Below are positions 40,041 to 50,200 of a DNA stretch of 64,000 nucleotides, one piece after another. Origin of the DNA: Microthyrium microscopicum. Its lineage: Eukaryota. The number at the start of each line of letters is the position of its first letter. Positions within the stretch are counted from its first letter, which is position 1. The DNA is taken from contig MU004233.1 of NCBI GenBank assembly GCA_010405405.1, forward strand, positions 943,122 through 1,007,121, written 5' to 3'. The position numbers and the translations under genes are program-made. The notes beneath the pieces were generated by a model. The model searched no databases and was not told the origin of the DNA. It saw nothing but the letters and a program-made list of their open reading frames with translations.

Positions 40041-41350
40041 CTAATCCTCCTCACTATCAAGCTCAATGCCTTCATACGGATCTCGCACAGGCTTGGCCTT
40101 CTCGCGCTCCTCCTCTGCTCGCTTTCCATGTCTCTCCGCGTACTCCTGCACAGCCTCTAGATCCGCTTCAAGTTCCAACCTCTCTTTGATCTCACTCGCC
40201 TTGTCAGCGGAGAAGCGGCCGGTCATTCCTATGTCCTTGAGCTTCTGGCGCAAATGGCGGATCTTTTCTTTGGGTGTATCAAAGTCTTTGAGTTCGCGCC
40301 ACCACATCTTGCGAACACCGCATTGCGTAAGCTGTTTTTGAAGCTTTTTGATTTCAGCGTCGTCGGGGTCTGATGTGTCCTTTGTGGCGGCTTTTGGTTT
40401 GGTGGGTTTGGTTGTCTTGTCTTTCTTGCCTTTCGGTTCGGATGACTTCTTCTTGCGTTTTGGAACTGGTCCATCGTCTATGAGGACGGACATGTCGCTC
40501 TCTGATAAGTTCTCGTCAACTGCTACATCGGGATTTTCTATAGTGGGACTGTTTGGTACGGAGGTTTTCGCTGGCGTCGCCTTCTTGGGGGTAGGTGATT
40601 TTTGTGGTGTTTTCTTGGCCGGTCTCTCCTCAGCAGGAGATTGGTCTTCATCCACATCCATCGCGTCTTCATCTACAGCCTCTTCTTTTGTAGCACCTTC
40701 TTCGGCATCCGATCCATAATCGCTGTCGTCTGAATCCTCTGAATCTTCCACCACTGTTGCTTTTCTTCTGCTGGCCGCAGTGGACTTTGTAGGCTTCGCG
40801 AGAACGGATTGTTTGAGGAGCTCGACGGTGCTGGGAGAGGCAGAGACTTCTGCAGAAAGTTCCGATGCCGAGTCTGGGGTCTCTGATTTCGCAGCCCTTT
40901 TCATCGGCTTGACTTTCTTCGCCGGAGTCACCTTCTCGGCCTTGAGGGTCCCTTTCTTTGCTTTAGGCGCGGCCTTTTGTTTCTTCTTGGGAGTATTGCT
41001 CTCTATGCCTTCGCTAGCGCGCTTCCGTCCACGCTTTGGTTGCTCCTCGATCAATTCCTTTGCAAATTGTTCGTCTTCTTCCTCGGGTTCTTCCGTTCTG
41101 CGCGCCTGGTACGCGTTAGTAACAACAGACAATTAGGAGTTAGTACACCCACGAAATCTTCTTGGATGAACAGCTTGCTCTTCTTATTCCACTCTGCATG
41201 TTGTTTGAACCAGCCCGCGTCTAGGTCAAGTTTTTCCTCAGCTTTCTTTCGCACAAGTGTAACAGTCATGGCGTCTTGATCATCCTCATCGAAGAACGTG
41301 TCGATTGCGCGGCGCAATGCAGTCTCGATTCGCTTGGCGTTCGGAGCCAT
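40041..41350 (-). CDS. HIRIP3-like acidic/basic chromatin protein with a C-terminal conserved domain. Intron 41152-41106
   Basis: TVTLVRKKAEEKLDLDAGWFK; K/E/D-rich linker; IKKLQKQLTQCGVRKMW...LKDIGMTGRFSADKASEIKERLELEADL. Confidence 0.85.
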
Positions 41351-42125
41351 TATTAATGATGTGGCCACGCGATCGAGGATCAATGGAAAAAGGTAAAACG
41401 GTGATCAAAAGAGGATCAATCGGCAGATGTGACTGTTAGTAAACAGCAGTGACGGAGCTGGAAACTGTGTGGGCGGGGAAGCAAAACAGAAAATTGAACT
41501 GACGTCGCGACGCGCCAGGGAACGTGCGCGACATCGTGAACTTGTCACTTTCCAGTCTTCGCATTTTAGCACCACTGCCTTTTCACATTTTCACATTTTG
41601 ATTCTCGAACTCTCTATTCGCTTTGAAGATCATTTCTTATGTCTGTGTTTTTATGTAAGTATAACTCCACGTCTTTGATGGCGAATTGCTCCCACCAAAA
41701 TGTCCCGCATTGGGGATCCAAGCAAGTGCCGGGTGGCAAGAACAACTCTTCCATCTTTCCAACCAAACTACTCTGAAGTCTTTCAAATCCTTACTCTGAC
41801 AAGTAGAGAAGCTCTTGAGTTTGGCATCAGTCATACAATGACACAAGAGAGGCATTTAATGCTGCTTCTAGACTCCTCCCGCGTGCGACATAAAAGGGAC
41901 AGGCCGCTCACCCGCAAAACTTCTTTTAGCCACATGATCAACTTGCAAATAAGACTGAACGTCTCCTCTTTTGATAAAAATTTTACTTTATTTCAATTTG
42001 TTCGTGTCTTCGAACTTCTCTGAGGGCTCGAATCTCGATAATCCTCAGCTTCAACGCTAAACTGCGTTGGCACGACCAGAGCTCTTCACAACTCCAGACG
42101 CTACACAACAATGCCGTGGGTACTA

Positions 42126-42175
42126 CACCCAAACCTAGAATGTGGTTGCGCGCGACTCTCTCCCCCCCATGCATT
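42126..42175 (+). repeat. Left TIR; imperfect subterminal similarity extends to ~42230
   Basis: cacccaaacctagaatgtggttgcgcgcgactctctcccccccatgcatt is the exact reverse complement of 45857-45906. Confidence 0.97.
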
Positions 42176-42553
42176 AATTGCTAGTTTTTTCAGGATTCTA
42201 CCAATCACACGCAAAATTGCCTATAGAATTGGAATCTATGAAATTCTACTAATCATAGGTTAATTTCTATGCTAAAGATTTTAGTGCTGGTTTATGGCGT
42301 TAGTATGCTAGATCTTAGTGTTTTGGTATCCAAAATAATTAGCTTCTTTTAGTCTACTAAGATAATATCATCTAGTATTCTACCATAGCATCTAATCTTC
42401 TACCATAGTAATTTAACTATTTTAAGGAGACACCGTTACCAAAACATGTAAGATTTTAGGTATTATTGTATGATATCTAGCTAGTCCCTATTACTTTAAC
42501 TTTCTAAGTCCTATCTTTATCAAATTTCATCACAATTTGACCCTACCACTATT

Positions 42554-44143
42554 ATAGCGCCTATAAAGGAGTCTAAGAAGAAGAAGAAGATTATTCCTTA
42601 GTCTTTACGACGTTCTATACGTAATCCAATTCCCTCCGCTATCGCTAGAGCTAATGGTATTCTTCCTACTACTATATCCTCTTTAATTACTTCAACACCT
42701 CCCTTAAGCTACCCTCTATTACTTCCTCATCCCTTAGGGTCTTCTTTAAGTACTCAAATCGAACTAGAAACTCAGTATCCTAAATCTTAACCACTGCCAG
42801 AATCTCAACTTCCTAAGGTTATAGAAATTGACCAATCAGAGGCCAAGAACGCCACAAACAACGACGAAGATCTTCCTCCCCTTGCTATTAACATAATAAT
42901 AAAGTTTTTGGTTAAATATTAAGGAAAGGAGATAATTATAAAGGCAGAATTCTAACACATACATATCCAATGTCTTTCTAGTCTTTAAGAGGCCTATAAT
43001 TAAGTTGTGCGAGATCAGGATAGGCAGTTTACTACTAAGAACCGTCCACGCTTCAACTATTCGATCTCTTTAAAGTTATTAATTATGTCGTTAACATTAG
43101 TTATGTTAAGGAAGATTGTACCAGATTTTGCTTGCCCGTTGCTTAAACACCCTCTAGAGGCTGATCTTAATCAATTCAAGCCTCTTAACACTAAAATCAA
43201 TAACTAGTAGGAAACATATTAGACTTAGCAACCCAAATTTACCCTACTTCTAGTCTTCAAAGCTTCACAAAGCGCTACAGGAAGTAATAACGTTATCAAA
43301 GCTTCAACTTCTACTATGTCGCGAGAACTTTAAAATCAATGTCTTAAAGCAAGCCAAACGGATCCTACTAACGCTGTTATTACCACTAATTCATAGGCAT
43401 CTCAGAATATACCTAATGCTACTATCTTGTAAGAACTTTGCGAGTTGAAGATGTCTAAATTAATTAATAAGTATAAGTGCCATTATACTACCTATCCTTG
43501 GTATAAGAAGGAGTATTGTTAGGTTAATAGATGCTATAACTATTATATCTTAAGCTAGGATTAGCTTAAGATTTAGGTGAGAGAGTAGGCTCTTACTATA
43601 CTAAATGTAGACTTAACTTAGGCTTCTATAGCTATTTATAACCAGCTTTGACACTATCGTTCTTTATAGTTCCTAAGCAATAATTAGCCTTCTGAAGGTG
43701 TTGCTATTACTAGATCTAGAGTCGTTATATATAATTACCTTAGACTATACCTATCTAGATTAGCTATAACGCCACCTAGTAGTAAAGATATTGCTCCTCC
43801 TATCTCTCTAATACTACGAAATACTACTATTTTTAGTAAGCTAAGTAGCTTTAAGAAGTAGGCGCTAGTTAGGCTTACTAGCGTTAGTAATTAAGATTTA
43901 ACTAATCCTATTGCTATTAAGGTTAAAAAGATTATAGAGATAATGCATAAACGCTTTATGCGTCCCCTTAATGTTATCTATAATAGTTCTTATTATAAAT
44001 AGTTACTTAATCACGGTACAAATAAATATATCTTAAGTTCTATTTAAGATTATGTTTAGGAATAGTAGTCCAAAGATTAGAGTACTTAAAATCACCCTAG
44101 TCTTGTTAAGAGACACTTTATACGTATTACTAATATAGAATGA
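42554..44143 (+). pseudogene. RIP-inactivated second ORF of the transposon (~529 codons, unknown function)
   Basis: One continuous frame from ATA-GCG-CCT (inferred ATG; MAPIKESKKKKK) to TGA 44141-44143. Internal stops are almost all TAA/TAG, as RIP makes from CAA/CAG/TGG. Contains YKCHYTTYPWYKKEYC*V...YIL...LKI*. Confidence 0.8.
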
Positions 44144-44466
44144 GTTTAGTTTTGATAGTATTTGCCCAAAAATCAATATTATAGTTATTCAAAAGTTATA
44201 AATATCTAGCCTAAATACAGAATATTGTAAGGTATTAGCTAAATCTTGCTATTATAATTTAAGATTATGCATAAGCTAGCTAGAATAGGCAATAGACTAA
44301 CTAAAAGAAGTATAGGTTAGGGTTCTAGAATCTAGATCTAATAAAACATAACTTAAGATCTCTACAAAGTGTCTAATCTAGAAGATTACTACTAAAACTC
44401 TACTTTATTACTATACAATCTTTATGACAAAACAAGTAAATTTAATTCTAAAAAAAATACCCCTAC

Positions 44467-45574
44467 CTAGCCAGTCTATCTAGCATATTTAAAATGCTTC
44501 TTTACGCGTCGTTTATCCTTTCCTAGCATAAGAATTCCGCGCTTAAAGACTTCTCTAAAAATTTTAAGTCTCTCTTCCTAATTTCTTGCAATATCGTAAT
44601 TAGGATGATGCTGCTTTAACTAAGACTTTAGGTCTCTAAAGAATGCTTTAATTAGATTAAGGTTAGGGGAATAAGGTAATAAATATTCTAATTAAACTCT
44701 ATGCTAGTTACAAATATCTTAAACATTACTATTATAATAAAAGGACGCGTTATCTATTATAATAATACTATTCTAAGCTAGGTAGGAATAACAATAGTTA
44801 CGTAGTAAGTCGTTATTAAGCTAATCTTTAAAGCCTTCTTAATTAGTATTAGCTTCATAAATTGCTTTATCTAGTATGCCATTTATGGTATAAGTAAGTA
44901 ATAAGTTAAGGCGCTTTTGATACTCTAAATAGTCATATAAGATTATATCTTTACCTATAGGACTCTAGCTTATTTAATGGTGAGTATCTAAGGCAGTACA
45001 ACCACTTTCATCTACAAAAATGAGCTAGTTAACATTATAAATCTTTATACGTTTATAGTATGCCTAGCGTTAAAGTCCATAGCGTTATTTTACGATCTCT
45101 TTAACCTAAAGAACATATAGAATTAGTATAAAAACTAACAGATTAGTTACTATAATAACTTACTCACTTTCTAGTCTATTTAGCGCGCTTCAGCTTAAAG
45201 AAGATAATAGATCTGCCATAGTTAACGTTTAGCTCATGCCACATTAGAAGAGATAACTCGTCAACGAAGTAAGTCCCCTTTAGGGCTAGGACTTTAAGCA
45301 TAAAATTGCGTATAGAGTTAGATATTTACAAGATGCAACTAAGGGTGTATTTAGGTCGCTTAACATACTCTAAAGTTACTATATCTAATCGATGGCGATA
45401 GCGGCGAATAGTATAATGACTACAACTAGCGTGTTTAGTAATAGCAGCTACTGAATAGCCTATTTGGAGCATCGTAATAATAGTAACACGTTTATTACTA
45501 GAGATATAACGTCCAGGTCAAGATAGGATTCGATCCTATTCAATTTAAGCTACTTCTAACTAAATAGGGTCCAT
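44467..45574 (-). pseudogene. RIP-inactivated DD34E transposase with a probable 58-bp intron (45163-45106)
   Basis: HTH region with TYFVDEL; LIFVDESG; IIDNASFY; EYLLPYSPNLNLIK (= YLPPYSPDLNPIE after reversing RIP). 34 residues lie between the second D and the E position. Confidence 0.92.
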
Positions 45575-45856
45575 AATAAGATAAGATATAATGGTACAGG
45601 ATAAGGATGATTAATTTATATGTAAATAGGTAAGAAAACATTAAGAGACGTCTAAACAGACATGTCCTAAAGACTAGCTAAATGCGAGCTTTTAAACGGT
45701 TACCAAAACACCAAAATTGGTACACTAAATCTTCTATACTAAGCCAAAATTAGGTACACTTATACTCTAGTACGATATAGTTCTGATTTTCTACCTCCCA
45801 GCTTCATAGGCAATTTTACGTGTGATTGGTGGAATTACTGCAGGAATGCGAAAACA

Positions 45857-45906
45857 AATGCATGGGGGGGAGAGAGTCGCGCGCAACCACATTCTAGGTT
45901 TGGGTG
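45857..45906 (-). repeat. Right TIR
   Basis: aatgcatgggggggagagagtcgcgcgcaaccacattctaggtttgggtg followed by TA. Confidence 0.97.
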
Positions 45907-45987
45907 TAAGCTAGTCCGTTCAATCATTAACCATTAGCCATTTTTGGTCTTCACCTCCTTCTCCTCGTCATTAGTTATTGGAATGCT

Positions 45988-47664
45988 TTATTTCTCGGCC
46001 TTGCGTGGCTCGAGTAGTAGTTGACCGGATGGACCGCTCTTCTCCATGAAGCCGTCCTCGCGGGTGAAGACACGGCGTCCACGGAGCCATGTTTCGCGGA
46101 CGACACCTTTCATCGTCTTGCCCTCGTATGGGCTGCACTTGTTGCGGAAGAGCATGGTACTTGGTTGAACCTAGAAAATCGTTAGCATTCAGCGTATTTA
46201 TGTAATGGTGGAGAACTTACCACAAACTCTGCCTCATCATCAAAGACGGCAATATCAGCATCATACCCAACAGCAATATCGCCCTTCGTTCCCTCCAGGC
46301 CAACTTGCTTCGCAGTATTAAGACAGCACCACCGCACCACATCCTCGATACTGATCTTGCGCTCCTGGCCTTCCGTCCACAGAATGCTAAGTCCTAGACC
46401 GACACTGCTGATTCCACCCCACGCAGCGAAAAAGTCGCCCTCTGTGCCTTCGACTTCGGAACTCGATACGGCGCCTGGCATGTGTGCGGGCAGTAATTTG
46501 AGATCTGGTGTGCATGGCGAGTGGTCGCTGACGACGGTCTTGATCACGCTGTCGTCTTCGCGCGTTAGCTCGTCCCATAGACCGTCTTGGTTGGATTGTT
46601 CGCGGATGGGCGGGCAGCACTTGTGTCGGGTGTCGCCGGCTTTGATGCGCTCGGCGGCTAGGGAGAGGTAGTGGAAGCATGTTTCGGCTGTGACTTTTAT
46701 GCCGTTGGCGCGTGCTTCGCGGAGGATGGGGATGGCCTGGATGGCGGACAGGTGGACGATGTGGAGCGGGAGGTTGGGGGCTAGGTGGGCCAGTGAGAGG
46801 ATCTCTTCAATGGCGTAGGTCTCGAAGGATGGTGGGCGTGAGTCGAGGAAGGTTTGATAGTGCTCCAGTGGACCAGTGGGTGCGAGAGGTGGCAGTGAGT
46901 GTTGCACGTCGTCACCGACGGATGCGGCGATGGGTGGGATCATCTCGGCATGGAACATGCATGTCGTTGGCTCGTCGGCGAGTTGCTCGAAGGCCTTGCG
47001 GATGTCTTCGGATGAGACGGCTGGGAACTCATCGACCTGTGTGACATGTTAGGTATGATTGTATTGAGGAGAGGAGTATACTTACACCACTGTCTATTAG
47101 GAAGCCTTTGAATCCACGGACACCTTCACGGACAAGAGCTTTGAGTTCCCTGGCATTGCCAGGAATGAGACCGCCATAGAAGCCGACATCTACCCAACAT
47201 TTTCCTTGGGCGGCGGCAATCTTCTCTTTCAGGCCGGCGACGGTGGTAGTGGGTGGGATGGCATTCAGCGGCATGTCAATGACAGTAGTGACACCACCAA
47301 AGGCAGCAGCACGAGTGCCAGTCCAGAAGCCCTCCCATTCAGTCCGACCAGGCTCGTTAAGATGCACATGAGCATCAACAAGACCCGGGATCAGAATCTT
47401 TGGCGAATGGTCGACATAGAAGGTGCCAGGTGGGAAGCTTGTCTCCGCAATCACCGAATTGAATATGGACTCAATTTTACCAGTGGAATGCGATATGATA
47501 ATCGTAGCAGGAGTAAGACGACCACCAATGACTGCTCTTGAGGAAGCCAAGACAGTGATTGGCGGGCCGTCAATGCCTGGCGACGATGCACCACTGCCGG
47601 TGGTTGTGGAGATGGAGGCATATGAGGCCGCCCTGGCTATGTCGACTGTTGCATTAGGAGCCAT
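45988..47664 (-). CDS. DAL1: Allantoinase. Introns 47085-47037 and 46220-46171
   Basis: PGLVDAHVHLNEPGRTEWEGF, GGVTTVIDMPLNAIPPTT, HIVHLS, ETCFHYL, KCCPPIR, VSDHSPC, AWGGISSVGLGL, FRNKCSPYEG. Confidence 0.97.
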
Positions 47665-50200
47665 GGCTGATGATGCTGATTGATCAGTTGCAATGATAAA
47701 GTTGTTTTAGCTGACCGTTGGGTTAGATACAGATCGTGCCTTATCGAACAACGGAGCCTGGCGATATGCGGCGCTGTTGATTGGTAAACTTACTGGTGAA
47801 AGTCCTGCTTGACATAGGACTTGATAGCAGGGCTTGTGTGAGGTGGCTGGATGTGGAATGTAAGAGTCAAGTGAGTCTTTCACTTGTGGATTTCACAATA
47901 TGGTCAAAGATTATGGGAAAGAACACAAGAGCAAGGTGAAATCCGGGGTGCAGAATATTTGCTTATCGCTACTATCTTCTTTGTGGACTGCTATCTTTAT
48001 ACCAGGCCGGCTACATTGCTCCGAGACAGGCACGCTCTCTCGCTGTGGTCAGCAAGAGTGTGTGCTGCTGCAATGTATTACTCGATACAAACTCAATATC
48101 CAAGGGAGTCGATTTACTTATCAGTCGGAAATGCCCGGTGTATCGACCAATTGTGGACCCTGAGATTAGTGTGTAACCTACTAGATCTAGCCTGCACGTC
48201 AAGTTTGTCGACACAGGGCTCTAGGCTCTCCGCCTCTCCCCAAGAGATATGCAACAGAATGGCAGTCAGAACCGAAGCTGGTCTGTAGGTATCATTGGCT
48301 CTAGACACGAAAAGAGAGCGGACCGGATGCCTTGGGCCAATGAGTTGGTGAGAGAGAGCAAGGAAGGCAGCCTTTTGAACGGTGGTTCGCTGAATGCCGT
48401 GGGAAACTCAAGCACCGTCCGTTACGTTATCTCGTATTAGCCGTTTTTGATCTAGCGCATCAGGGGTCCTTATCTCTAGCCTGCATGTCCCAACGAGTGT
48501 TCGTTGTCTTTCATAAGACTTCCAAGTCTCCAAACAAAGCCAGTCACTTTACAACCTGTACACCACTTTCCAACAACAAAGCCTTGTTCAACAAGGCCTA
48601 AAACAGTCGCTTGCAGTTCACGCTCTTTGTCTCACACAAAAACCGCATCGACCCCGCAAGTTTGGCGCTGCTGTTGCACCGCGGACCGAAATTCACGGAA
48701 TATACTCCGTCCTCGCATGACCGGCCCGGGATGGGTTCCTATCGAGTAACGGAAACGTTGATCGAGTAATAGAAACACCATGAACAGAGGTACGATGCAT
48801 ACTATCACCAAAATACTTTTCTACCTACCCCGTTTGCAGCCTTAGCTCCTTGAAAAGGTTTTCTCAAATCTTTTCCTTGTTTTTCATCATACATGAGACT
48901 GTGAGCACTTTTTGACCTCGGAAATATCTTTCATTCTGGGTTAGGTTCTTGAATTCGTTTGGTACACGAATCCTCCGGGCAAGAACAACAGCCGCCGGCA
49001 TGATGTAATCGAGTCCTTTTCAATTACCATTGTTTCTAGCGCTACCGGAGATTATCCTTCGACCACCTTTTTGTGATTTTCGTAGAGCATGCCATCCGTG
49101 TCTTATGTATGGCTTGCGACGTTGGTTCCGACCAAATTGGAATTCTAGCCATTTTAAATTCACTTTGATCTGTTTCTAGTCTGAGGAAGTAGGTTTGAGA
49201 CTCCAGTACAGTCTGCCCACGGGTTGCAACGTCATTCATGCTGCTAGTCTTGATTCAAACACAGTGAACGTCCCATCTTTGACCTGGGCTTAGACGATCT
49301 GACGTGGGAGCATGGTAGTTGTAAAATCAACATCGGAGAGGTCTTCTATATATTTGATGTCTTGGGATTTTGCCATGTGATGTGTACATGAGGCGAACAG
49401 ACTGGCTTTCTAGACTAACATACATTCTCTCATTTAACAAGTACGTACCTGTCTAAGTACTTCTTCTCCTAGGCTTGCTAGCATACAAATGATAGCCCTG
49501 CTCTTTTCATTACCTAGGTACTTCGAATAAGATGAGGTCTCTACGATCTGGTCTTGCTGTCATATATGAAAGCTGTTCGCCGCGTTCGTGTTGAGTTCTT
49601 TATCCCTCTTGATATATCCAATGCATTAGGTAGTTATACTTTACTTCGATGGAGAAATCAACATTAGATTAATTATGCACTTAGCTACCATGTGCTACTA
49701 CTTATACCGGTCAATAGGCAGTTTTACAGGTTCTTTGTCAGTCAAAGGGCCACCAGTTGACAAAACAACACTATGCTCCGATGAATCGGCTATCTGAATC
49801 ATACTTCATGAAATCGTTATACTTTCATCCTCAGTGATATTTAAAGCGTCCGCTTATCTTCATATAAATCTGCTTGGAGACAAGTCAATCGAGAGGATAG
49901 ACCATCTACTCATAGATGGATCTTGCTGAGGAAGAGTCTCATGTACCATAAGTAGACCTCACACTGAATAAGCCATATCATTTATCTTGTTTACACGTCA
50001 GGGGTACCCAAACAAATCGCCGATTTTCTTGCATTTTTTTTGTTATTTTCGAGTCGAGGCCACAGTCTCAGCTAGGATTGTGACGTTCGACTGTTTCCTT
50101 AATTTCCAACTCAAAATTCAATCACACCCTTCCAAAAACAAAGTCGTTCCAAAACCTCAATCTTTCACCACAGAGACTACCTCTCATTCGCATGAGATCT

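Follow-up and report, generated by a model that had tools for sequence, protein, structure and literature searches.

Tc1 elements are the textbook example of one-gene transposons, and in their usual form they consist of a single transposase gene within about 1.3-2.4 kb of DNA. Two-gene DNA transposons are familiar from PIF/Harbinger, CACTA and MuDR, which belong to other superfamilies and have other transposases, ends and target duplications; what they share with the element considered here is the idea of a transposase accompanied by a second element-encoded protein, and the likeness is one of analogy only. That element lies at positions 42126-45906 (3,781 bp) of a 64,000-nucleotide stretch of contig MU004233.1 of Microthyrium microscopicum, referred to below as the window. 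It is a member of the Tc1 (DD34E) family in which a long and badly degraded open reading frame (ORF), here called ORF2, runs towards the transposase gene from the opposite side. On balance, we think it probable that this is a once autonomous cut-and-paste transposon, killed by repeat-induced point mutation (RIP), that carried ORF2 as a passenger between its terminal inverted repeats (TIRs).

The nearest published parallel is found in Pyrenophora tritici-repentis, for which Manning et al. (2013, PMC3538342) describe a Tc1/Mariner family of 46 members with a second ORF between the TIRs, both coding regions being present in 31 of them. The second ORF is interpreted there as the product of transduplication, and the same account reports that coding sequences similar to these lie as a tandem pair on AM-BAC-13 of Alternaria alternata. 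Compared by description, the Pyrenophora and Microthyrium elements are both Tc1/Mariner transposons of filamentous ascomycetes in which a second ORF situated between the TIRs was multiplied together with the transposase. They differ in that the Pyrenophora copies are described as nearly identical and transcribed, whereas the present element is RIP-dead, and in that the Pyrenophora ORF carries the Pfam domain PF08946, for which ORF2 gave no match at E values up to 10 in six frames; RIP could hide so short a coiled-coil domain.

More distant precedents are provided by the TBE and Tec elements of ciliates, in which a DD34E transposase is accompanied by further ORFs (PMC7325037). These belong to the same superfamily, and in Tec one of the extra ORFs is on the complementary strand. 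As that source describes them, they contain three ORFs, including one for a zinc-finger protein or a site-specific recombinase, and Tec has very long TIRs; their hosts are ciliates, and no zinc-finger or site-specific recombinase family of Pfam was detected here in any of the six frames of 42176-44500. Mariner elements with Fanzor1, nuclease or methylase cargo are also on record (Bao and Jurka, 2013, PMC3627910). Like the present element, they combine a Mariner/Tc1 transposase with another protein gene inside TA-flanked TIRs; unlike the Fanzor1 elements described there, ORF2 lacks the Fanzor/TnpB signature in a scan tolerant of RIP. Nor is length alone new, since Tc1-Mariner copies of 1.3-3.9 kb are reported from Cochliobolus heterostrophus (PMC4112212). 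A Tc1/Mariner element carrying a second ORF is thus a kind of transposon already published, and the suggestion in the original prediction that the Microthyrium element may define an undescribed family is not supported, given the 2013 Pyrenophora report and the ciliate and cargo precedents, while literature searches found no description of this particular element.

The element and its transposase

Each end of the element consists of a perfect 50-nt TIR, identified by inverted-repeat search (42126-42175 on the plus strand and 45857-45906 on the minus strand), with a TA dinucleotide directly outside it (42124-42125 and 45907-45908) that is the putative target-site duplication. With the TA included, the two inverted-repeat arms (42124-42175 and 45857-45908) are 52 nt long and 100% complementary. 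The terminal 31-nt pattern occurs twice in the window, against 0.00 occurrences expected from 100 shuffles. Alignment of the two ends reveals a degraded likeness that extends about 210 nt inward, with inverted pairs between left and right of 78% (I2) and 85% (I5). A second, inner block (42312-42331 and 45698-45717, 85% complementary) is situated about 190-210 nt inside each end, and what separates it from the perfect outer TIR is poorly conserved; we take these inner blocks to recall the inner binding sites of Tc1 elements of the inverted repeat/direct repeat (IR/DR) type.

The transposase is encoded on the minus strand. With stop codons read as X, as in all searches with the transposase and with ORF2, it matches the Pfam family DDE_3 (PF13358) at an E value of 2.8e-16, with 60.1 bits against a cut-off of 28.6 and over positions 2-137 of the 146 in the profile. 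This family is among those listed for fungal Tc1/Mariner elements (PMC5751038). In the reading that was scanned (P0002), in which exon 1 is out of frame, the catalytic residues are D199, D285 and K320, with spacings of 85 and 34; the codon of K320, AAA, is one G-to-A change away from GAA, and what was a glutamate is now a lysine. The sole clear relative retrieved is P0003, an intact protein of 326 residues encoded on a 7,083-nt contig (JGI/ENA). It matches the exon that carries the DDE domain at E 1.5e-19, with 36% identity over 73% of the exon, and has D-34-E in the same alignment columns.

This exon, exon 2 (44476-45105, minus strand), contains 14 internal stops and a terminal TAG, and it aligns with P0003 as far as the C-terminus, which places the transposase stop at 44476-44478. 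Exon 1 (45164-45574, minus strand; 137 codons, 7 stops), the putative N-terminal DNA-binding part, opens with an ATG at 45574 and is in a different frame from the DDE part. It is collinear with residues 2-115 of P0003 (pairwise BLASTP E 0.005, 18% identity), and the match closes with '...RAKXTRK' against '...DAGWSRK'. A predicted intron of 58 nt on the minus strand (45163-45106, GTAAGT...TTTAG), absent from the original prediction, would fuse the exon-1 frame to the DDE frame exactly. The gene so assembled has about 346 codons and a full layout, with internal stops at 21 of 345 codons.

Domain, spacing, TA and TIRs all fit the Tc1 (DD34E) family of the IS630-Tc1-mariner group, to which the element belongs; it had been described beforehand as a Tc1/IS630-type DD34E element with TA flanks and 50-bp TIRs, and that description stands. 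TA duplication, TIRs, DDE_3, D-D-34-E and a transposase of about 346 codons that reads inward from one end are all features of Tc1. The element departs from the usual form in its length of 3.78 kb, in a second ORF, some 530 codons long and read from the opposite strand, in the short predicted intron of the transposase and in its full inactivation by RIP. Its unusual length, also remarked on earlier, is due to about 2.1 kb of extra DNA. With 3,781 bp and a second coding-like frame, it does not keep to the family habit of one gene in about 1.3-2.4 kb, a habit that is usual and not defining.

Damage by RIP

RIP was recognised by a TpA/ApT ratio above 0.89 (as quoted in PMC4112212) combined with a (CpA+TpG)/(ApC+GpT) ratio below 1.03. 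All eight interior segments of the element are RIP-positive, with values of 1.18-1.74 for the first index and 0.41-0.94 for the second, and both 1.1-kb flanks are RIP-negative (0.58-0.63 and 1.21-1.22). When both indices were applied with stricter thresholds to 500-nt intervals across the 64 kb, 14 intervals exceeded them, 13 of which are within the element; the signal in the remaining interval, at 501-1000 (TpA/ApT 1.55, second index 0.88, 45% G+C), is probably not RIP. The density of CpA+TpG is 0.066 per nt in the element and 0.1425 in the flanks, so that about half of such sites have been lost.

The outer 50 nt at both ends are free of this damage. The left TIR has four CpA and four TpG sites that are identical in the other arm, none of the 16 CpA/TpG sites differs between the arms, and the edge of the mutated region is sharp, at about 42176 and 45856. 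The intact ends may reflect weak RIP at the edges of repeats; being unmutated, they would remain recognisable to a transposase supplied in trans. Within the element, the RIP indices of ORF2 equal those of the transposase, nothing comparable being found outside the TIRs, and the density of internal stops is also similar (31 of 529 codons in ORF2 and 21 of 345 in the transposase). Both genes are dead, with 31 in-frame stops in ORF2, 21 in the transposase and the catalytic E of the latter changed to K. The view that both ORFs are heavily RIP-mutated was therefore correct, the indices being positive across the interior.

Evidence for a former gene in ORF2

ORF2 occupies 42554-44143 on the plus strand and consists of 530 codons, 32 of which are stops: 31 internal ones and the terminal TGA (20 TAG, 10 TAA and 2 TGA in all). 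It had been put forward as a convergent plus-strand frame of about 529 codons interrupted only by point stops. Because RIP can produce any of the stop codons out of some sense codon, the latter property is no test, and the density of stops is not distinctive by itself; the part of the proposal that stands is that the frame bears statistical marks of a former coding region. From these we consider it quite likely that ORF2 is what remains of a protein-coding gene that was read from the plus strand, convergently with the transposase.

The first mark is a periodicity that RIP cannot create or erase. The changes that RIP makes are all transitions, which leave a sequence written in purine/pyrimidine (RY) letters as it was. 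In ORF2, the purine fractions at codon positions 1, 2 and 3 (R1/R2/R3) are 0.55/0.47/0.42 (chi-square 17.3, p 1.7e-4), and the sign of the periodicity is the same in all three thirds of the frame, of which the last is the only one significant by itself (p 3.3e-4; middle third p 0.19). The two transposase exons served as positive controls and gave p 2.5e-4 and, for exon 1, 0.048; three non-coding segments of the element gave p 0.27-0.66. These include the left subterminal region (42176-42553, p 0.66), in which the degraded likeness to the right end persists until about 42331, and the spacer between the convergent stop codons (44144-44475, p 0.41). The right subterminal region (45575-45856), which comprises the 5' leader of the transposase and the degraded inner TIR as judged from the alignment of the ends, was also used as a periodicity control.

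Similar conclusions come from an RY-dicodon model trained on 19 long host ORFs of the window, which ranked the true frame top in 16 of 19 leave-one-out trials. Applied to ORF2, it returned one positive phase pair (+22.3 bits sense, +37.6 bits antisense), and the other four frames scored from -44 to -141; both transposase exons give the same pattern. The left subterminal region scored negative in all six frames and the best frame of the spacer reached +4.8 bits, neither segment showing a coding signal. The strand was then assigned from amino-acid composition, with tables derived from the same host ORFs after simulated RIP. This test was correct in 19 of 19 leave-one-out trials and placed the true strand above the antisense in both transposase exons. 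For ORF2, it gave +59.1 bits for the plus strand and -54.5 for the minus strand, a gap of 113.6 bits, with the same sign in each of the three thirds.

As read, ORF2 has near its start a K-run, 'IAPIKESKKKKK' (lysine run KKKKK), which resembles a nuclear import signal by eye, followed by an S/T/P-rich and low-complexity composition in its first quarter. Further on, the stretch 'KCHYTTYPWYKKEYC*VNRCYNYYILS' is present, and there is a cysteine/tyrosine-rich patch at residues 303-329. The original prediction had drawn attention to both motifs. The K-run and the second stretch are indeed in the sequence; the initial M and the motif as restored by reversal of RIP are conjecture, and no metal-binding family of Pfam matched ORF2.

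Other copies in the source genome

Evidence on other copies was obtained from contigs of the source genome's own sequencing runs, aligned to 41000-47000 at a likeness of at least 80%. Diverged contigs cover the ends of the element, the transposase and parts of ORF2. One of these, of 1,029 nt, can be aligned with 42558-42789, from which it departs by 37 differences and by an insertion of 9 nt that keeps the frame. Other copies differ from the element mainly by C>T and G>A (34 + 20 of 106 places in run X4); transversions also occur, which indicates that the copies diverged before RIP or besides it. The equal RIP in ORF2 and the transposase, taken with the contig evidence, indicates that in some members of the family, at the least, ORF2 belonged to what was repeated, and if it did so at the time of RIP, it travelled and multiplied with the element. 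A two-gene, multicopy Tc1 element is therefore likely. The idea that ORF2 was multicopy together with the element had been raised before, and it agrees with RIP equal to that of the transposase, with flanks left unaffected and with the 1,029-nt contig. This evidence extends to part of the family and not as far as every full-length member.

Deleted derivatives without most of ORF2 exist in the same genome. They are represented by contigs that join 42944 to 44366 (1,421 nt skipped) and 43744 to 44382 (637 nt skipped), between which other letters may lie, and they run counter to the notion that ORF2 is fixed in all copies. Loose-end consensus strings from other contigs revealed no copy in which the transposase 3' end follows straight on the left end; when the seven strings were slid along the element, also as RY letters, none had a clear home, the best placement having 26/30 RY matches with 18/30 identities. 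Within the 64-kb window there are no further copies (best blastn E 0.2; tblastx nothing at E<=0.01). Metagenome scans returned 0 matches for a 24-nt TIR pattern, and 196 pattern matches for the transposase of which 0 were confirmed.

A separate observation concerns a contig that occurs both in a DNA run (X1) and in X5, a run guessed to consist of RNA; this contig follows the left end over 42146-42247 and then passes into unrelated sequence. It differs from the element at 42212 (C>T) and 42214 (A>G), and its continuation maps nowhere in the element. The contig that leaves at 42247 may represent a related family or a short non-autonomous element with the same ends.

Searches for the identity of ORF2

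No relative of ORF2 was recovered in searches of large collections. A word-based search of 5.8 billion proteins yielded 5,396 candidates, 0 of them at E<=0.01; a HMMER scan of 1.84 billion representative proteins gave 0 at E<=0.001; and comparison with PDB sequences gave nothing at E up to 10. Pfam returned 0 families for ORF2 and 0 in all six frames of 42176-44500 (E up to 10), and NCBIfam 0 families in six frames. Among the kinds of domain that might have been expected, no Myb-like or other accessory domain was seen in ORF2 with Pfam, and no restriction, methylase or nuclease family matched the ORF2 region in six frames with Pfam or NCBIfam. Little weight attaches to these negatives, since most single-sequence searches also failed with the transposase, which is just as heavily mutated: the word-based search found nothing for it at E 1e-5, its DDE exon alone retrieved two proteins at E up to 1, and its best PDB match was insignificant (E 1.4). 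The Pfam profile alone recognised it.

Structure prediction was no more revealing. From the single sequence, AlphaFold2 modelled ORF2 with a predicted local distance difference test (pLDDT) score of 32.5, and the control DDE exon with 36.0. The result is uninformative for ORF2 because a proven exon was modelled equally poorly, and neither model is usable. With no homologue, domain or fold, it is not shown that ORF2 was an accessory gene fixed in the element and active in target choice, regulation or anti-silencing, as had been proposed.

Two specific candidates were examined and rejected. One is a second, inverted transposase: ORF2 has no similarity to P0003 (E 3.9), despite starting about 430 nt inside the left end. 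The other is Fanzor1/TnpB, for which the published signature is D-x(125,275)-[TS][TS]-x-x-[C4 zinc finger]-x(5,50)-RD (PMC3627910). A scan for [TS][TS]-x2-CxxC-x(5,40)-CxxC-x(5,50)-RD, with every possible RIP reversal allowed, gave three matches in six frames, none of them in the frame of ORF2 and within it, and this number is near that expected by chance (1.46 +/- 1.27 in 200 shuffles).

Interpretation

The history that we favour would run as follows. The two-exon transposase would have bound the TIRs, excised the element and re-inserted it at TA, a mechanism that is established for the family and is extended here to this member. The extra DNA, which fills about 2.1 kb from the left end as far as the transposase 3' end, would once have encoded a convergent protein of some 530 residues. 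The start of this protein would have been rich in lysine, in the manner of a nuclear import signal, and its first quarter of low complexity, and no domain can be recognised in it. Being located between the ends, ORF2 would have been copied along with the transposase, and once the family had become multicopy, RIP would have struck each copy in the course of sexual cycles and put both genes out of action. We consider ORF2 more likely to have been a passenger sequestered between the TIRs than a helper needed for transposition, because its family is invisible in 1.84 billion proteins, because relatives without most of it exist and because the fungal parallel has been read as capture.

A number of observations weigh against this account, and they bear on each of its parts. 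The case that ORF2 was a gene is a statistical one, no search having produced a homologue, a family or a fold, and the choice of passenger rather than accessory is our judgement and not a result. The density of stops, 6.0%, is not far below the 7.4% of the next plus frame (32 against 39 stops) or the 7.2% of the antisense frame. Taken alone, the first third of ORF2 has a periodicity of p 0.14, and its phase is ambiguous in the RY-dicodon model. The RY models are blind to strand, and the transposase control scored higher on the wrong one; the strand call thus depends on a single composition test, for which the margins on the transposase control are small (-3.3 against -16.4 bits and 0.1 against -4.8 bits). 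The proposed start at 42554 is an ATA, with no ATG nearby. Other contigs are fewer over ORF2 than over the ends and the transposase, and over two intervals, 43412-43612 and 43814-44215, the contig of the element itself is the only one. This sparse cover could mean that most relatives are without ORF2, or that they are less than 80% alike.

Of the alternatives, one grants that ORF2 was a gene and gives it a function, making it a dedicated, conserved accessory gene, active in target choice, regulation or anti-silencing, of an undescribed two-gene Tc1/IS630 lineage comparable to Harbinger, CACTA and MuDR. We regard this as unlikely. It would account for the coding-type periodicity and composition of ORF2, for RIP shared with the transposase, for the recurrence of its 5' part in another contig of the source genome and, judged by eye, for the K-run start like a nuclear import signal, and the length of ORF2 and its mirror-symmetric position, with a start about 430 nt inside the left end, suggest a built-in gene. 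It does not sit easily with contigs of the same genome that skip most of ORF2, with the contig that shares the left end to 42247 only and then differs, or with the published fungal parallel, which is read as gene capture (PMC3538342); the lack of any relative in 1.84 billion representatives, or in Pfam or NCBIfam in all six frames, also counts against it, as a weak negative owing to RIP. We hold its more specific form to be quite improbable, namely a two-gene Tc1 lineage of filamentous ascomycetes in which a DD34E transposase is invariably accompanied by a conserved accessory protein targeted to the nucleus, with ORF2 as a relic of that protein. The opposite extreme, that ORF2 was never a gene and that the 2.1 kb are non-coding filler in which AT-rich, RIP-shaped sequence has left a long frame as a by-product, is in our estimate also unlikely. 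A RIP-invariant periodicity of p 1.7e-4, in constant phase along the region and seen in none of the three non-coding control segments, would be hard to explain in this way, as would a dicodon pattern identical to that of proven transposase exons and a composition that separates the strands by 113.6 bits. Such filler would nonetheless be expected to have a stop density close to that of other frames, as is the case (6.0% against 7.2-7.4% in two of them), RIP can 'explain' any stop codon, and the missing homologue, the missing ATG and the pLDDT of 32.5 would all follow, although the last says nothing when a control DDE exon does equally poorly at 36.0.

That ORF2 is foreign to the family, either as part of a nested and unrelated transposable element or as a fragment of a host gene captured in this sub-lineage alone, appears very improbable to us. 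In its favour are the size of the element, about double the usual, the thinner cover over ORF2 by other members that have the same ends and transposase, and the contig that diverges right after 42247. Against it, the segment is not bounded by internal TIRs, long terminal repeats or direct repeats (in the interior, the best inverted pair has 25 nt at 72%), no transposase, reverse-transcriptase or gag family is found in six of six frames, and ORF2 is unlike P0003 (E 3.9). No host-gene family was matched, though Pfam still found the equally RIPed domain of the transposase, and nothing similar occurs elsewhere in the window (blastn E 0.2; tblastx none at E<=0.01). Finally, Fanzor1 genes, which encode TnpB-like RNA-guided nucleases, are on record from within Mariner-type elements that have TA duplications (PMC3627910), the length of ORF2 is about right for one, and the cysteine/tyrosine-rich patch at 303-329 might be taken for its remains. 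A degraded Fanzor1 is hardly conceivable all the same: the RIP-tolerant motif scan is at chance level with no match within ORF2 in its frame, neither Pfam nor NCBIfam has an OrfB_Zn_ribbon or TnpB model that matches, the 3' end of ORF2 is directed to the middle of the element and not to a transposon end, and the fungi in Table 1 of PMC3627910, as quoted, are of early-diverging lineages. We accordingly keep to a RIP-killed Tc1 transposon with ORF2 as its probable passenger.

Genomic setting

The window is gene-dense, with about 45-55% G+C, and the element is its one sharp A+T-rich island (42.1-45.9 kb, 28-37% G+C). The insertion site is a TA between two host genes. On the left, the minus-strand gene at 40041-41404 encodes a lysine/glutamate-rich protein and has a 47-nt intron (41105-41151) that is spliced out in run X5. 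A contig of the same run (41696-42153) spans the left junction and reaches 28 nt into the TIR.

On the right, a minus-strand gene (45975-47706) ends with a stop about 70 nt from the element; its product was read by eye as an amidohydrolase, allantoinase/dihydropyrimidinase-like, and its intron at 46169-46218 is spliced out in X5. Contigs of this run cover 45807-45908, that is, about 100 nt of the right end of the element, and overlap the contig of the right neighbour at 45879-45908, from which the transcript of this gene seems to extend into the transposon end. No X5 contig lies between 42407 and 45622, which is not evidence of silence.

Implications

As a dead copy of a well-known family, the element is of small direct importance. 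It is a further instance, among fungi, of a Tc1/Mariner transposon with a second gene between its inverted repeats. The means by which ORF2 was assessed may be of wider use: purine/pyrimidine periodicity provides a RIP-proof test for former coding regions, and composition tables from host genes subjected to RIP in silico call the strand. Both worked on a proven control and may suit other RIP-degraded repeats.

Were the accessory lineage real, intact members in RIP-free fungi could reveal what use a Tc1 element makes of a helper protein, and the 'transduplicated' ORF of Pyrenophora and Alternaria might be a member of the same lineage and not a captured host gene. A regular association of ORF2 with the transposase in other fungi, if found, would mean that Tc1 elements can have helper genes.

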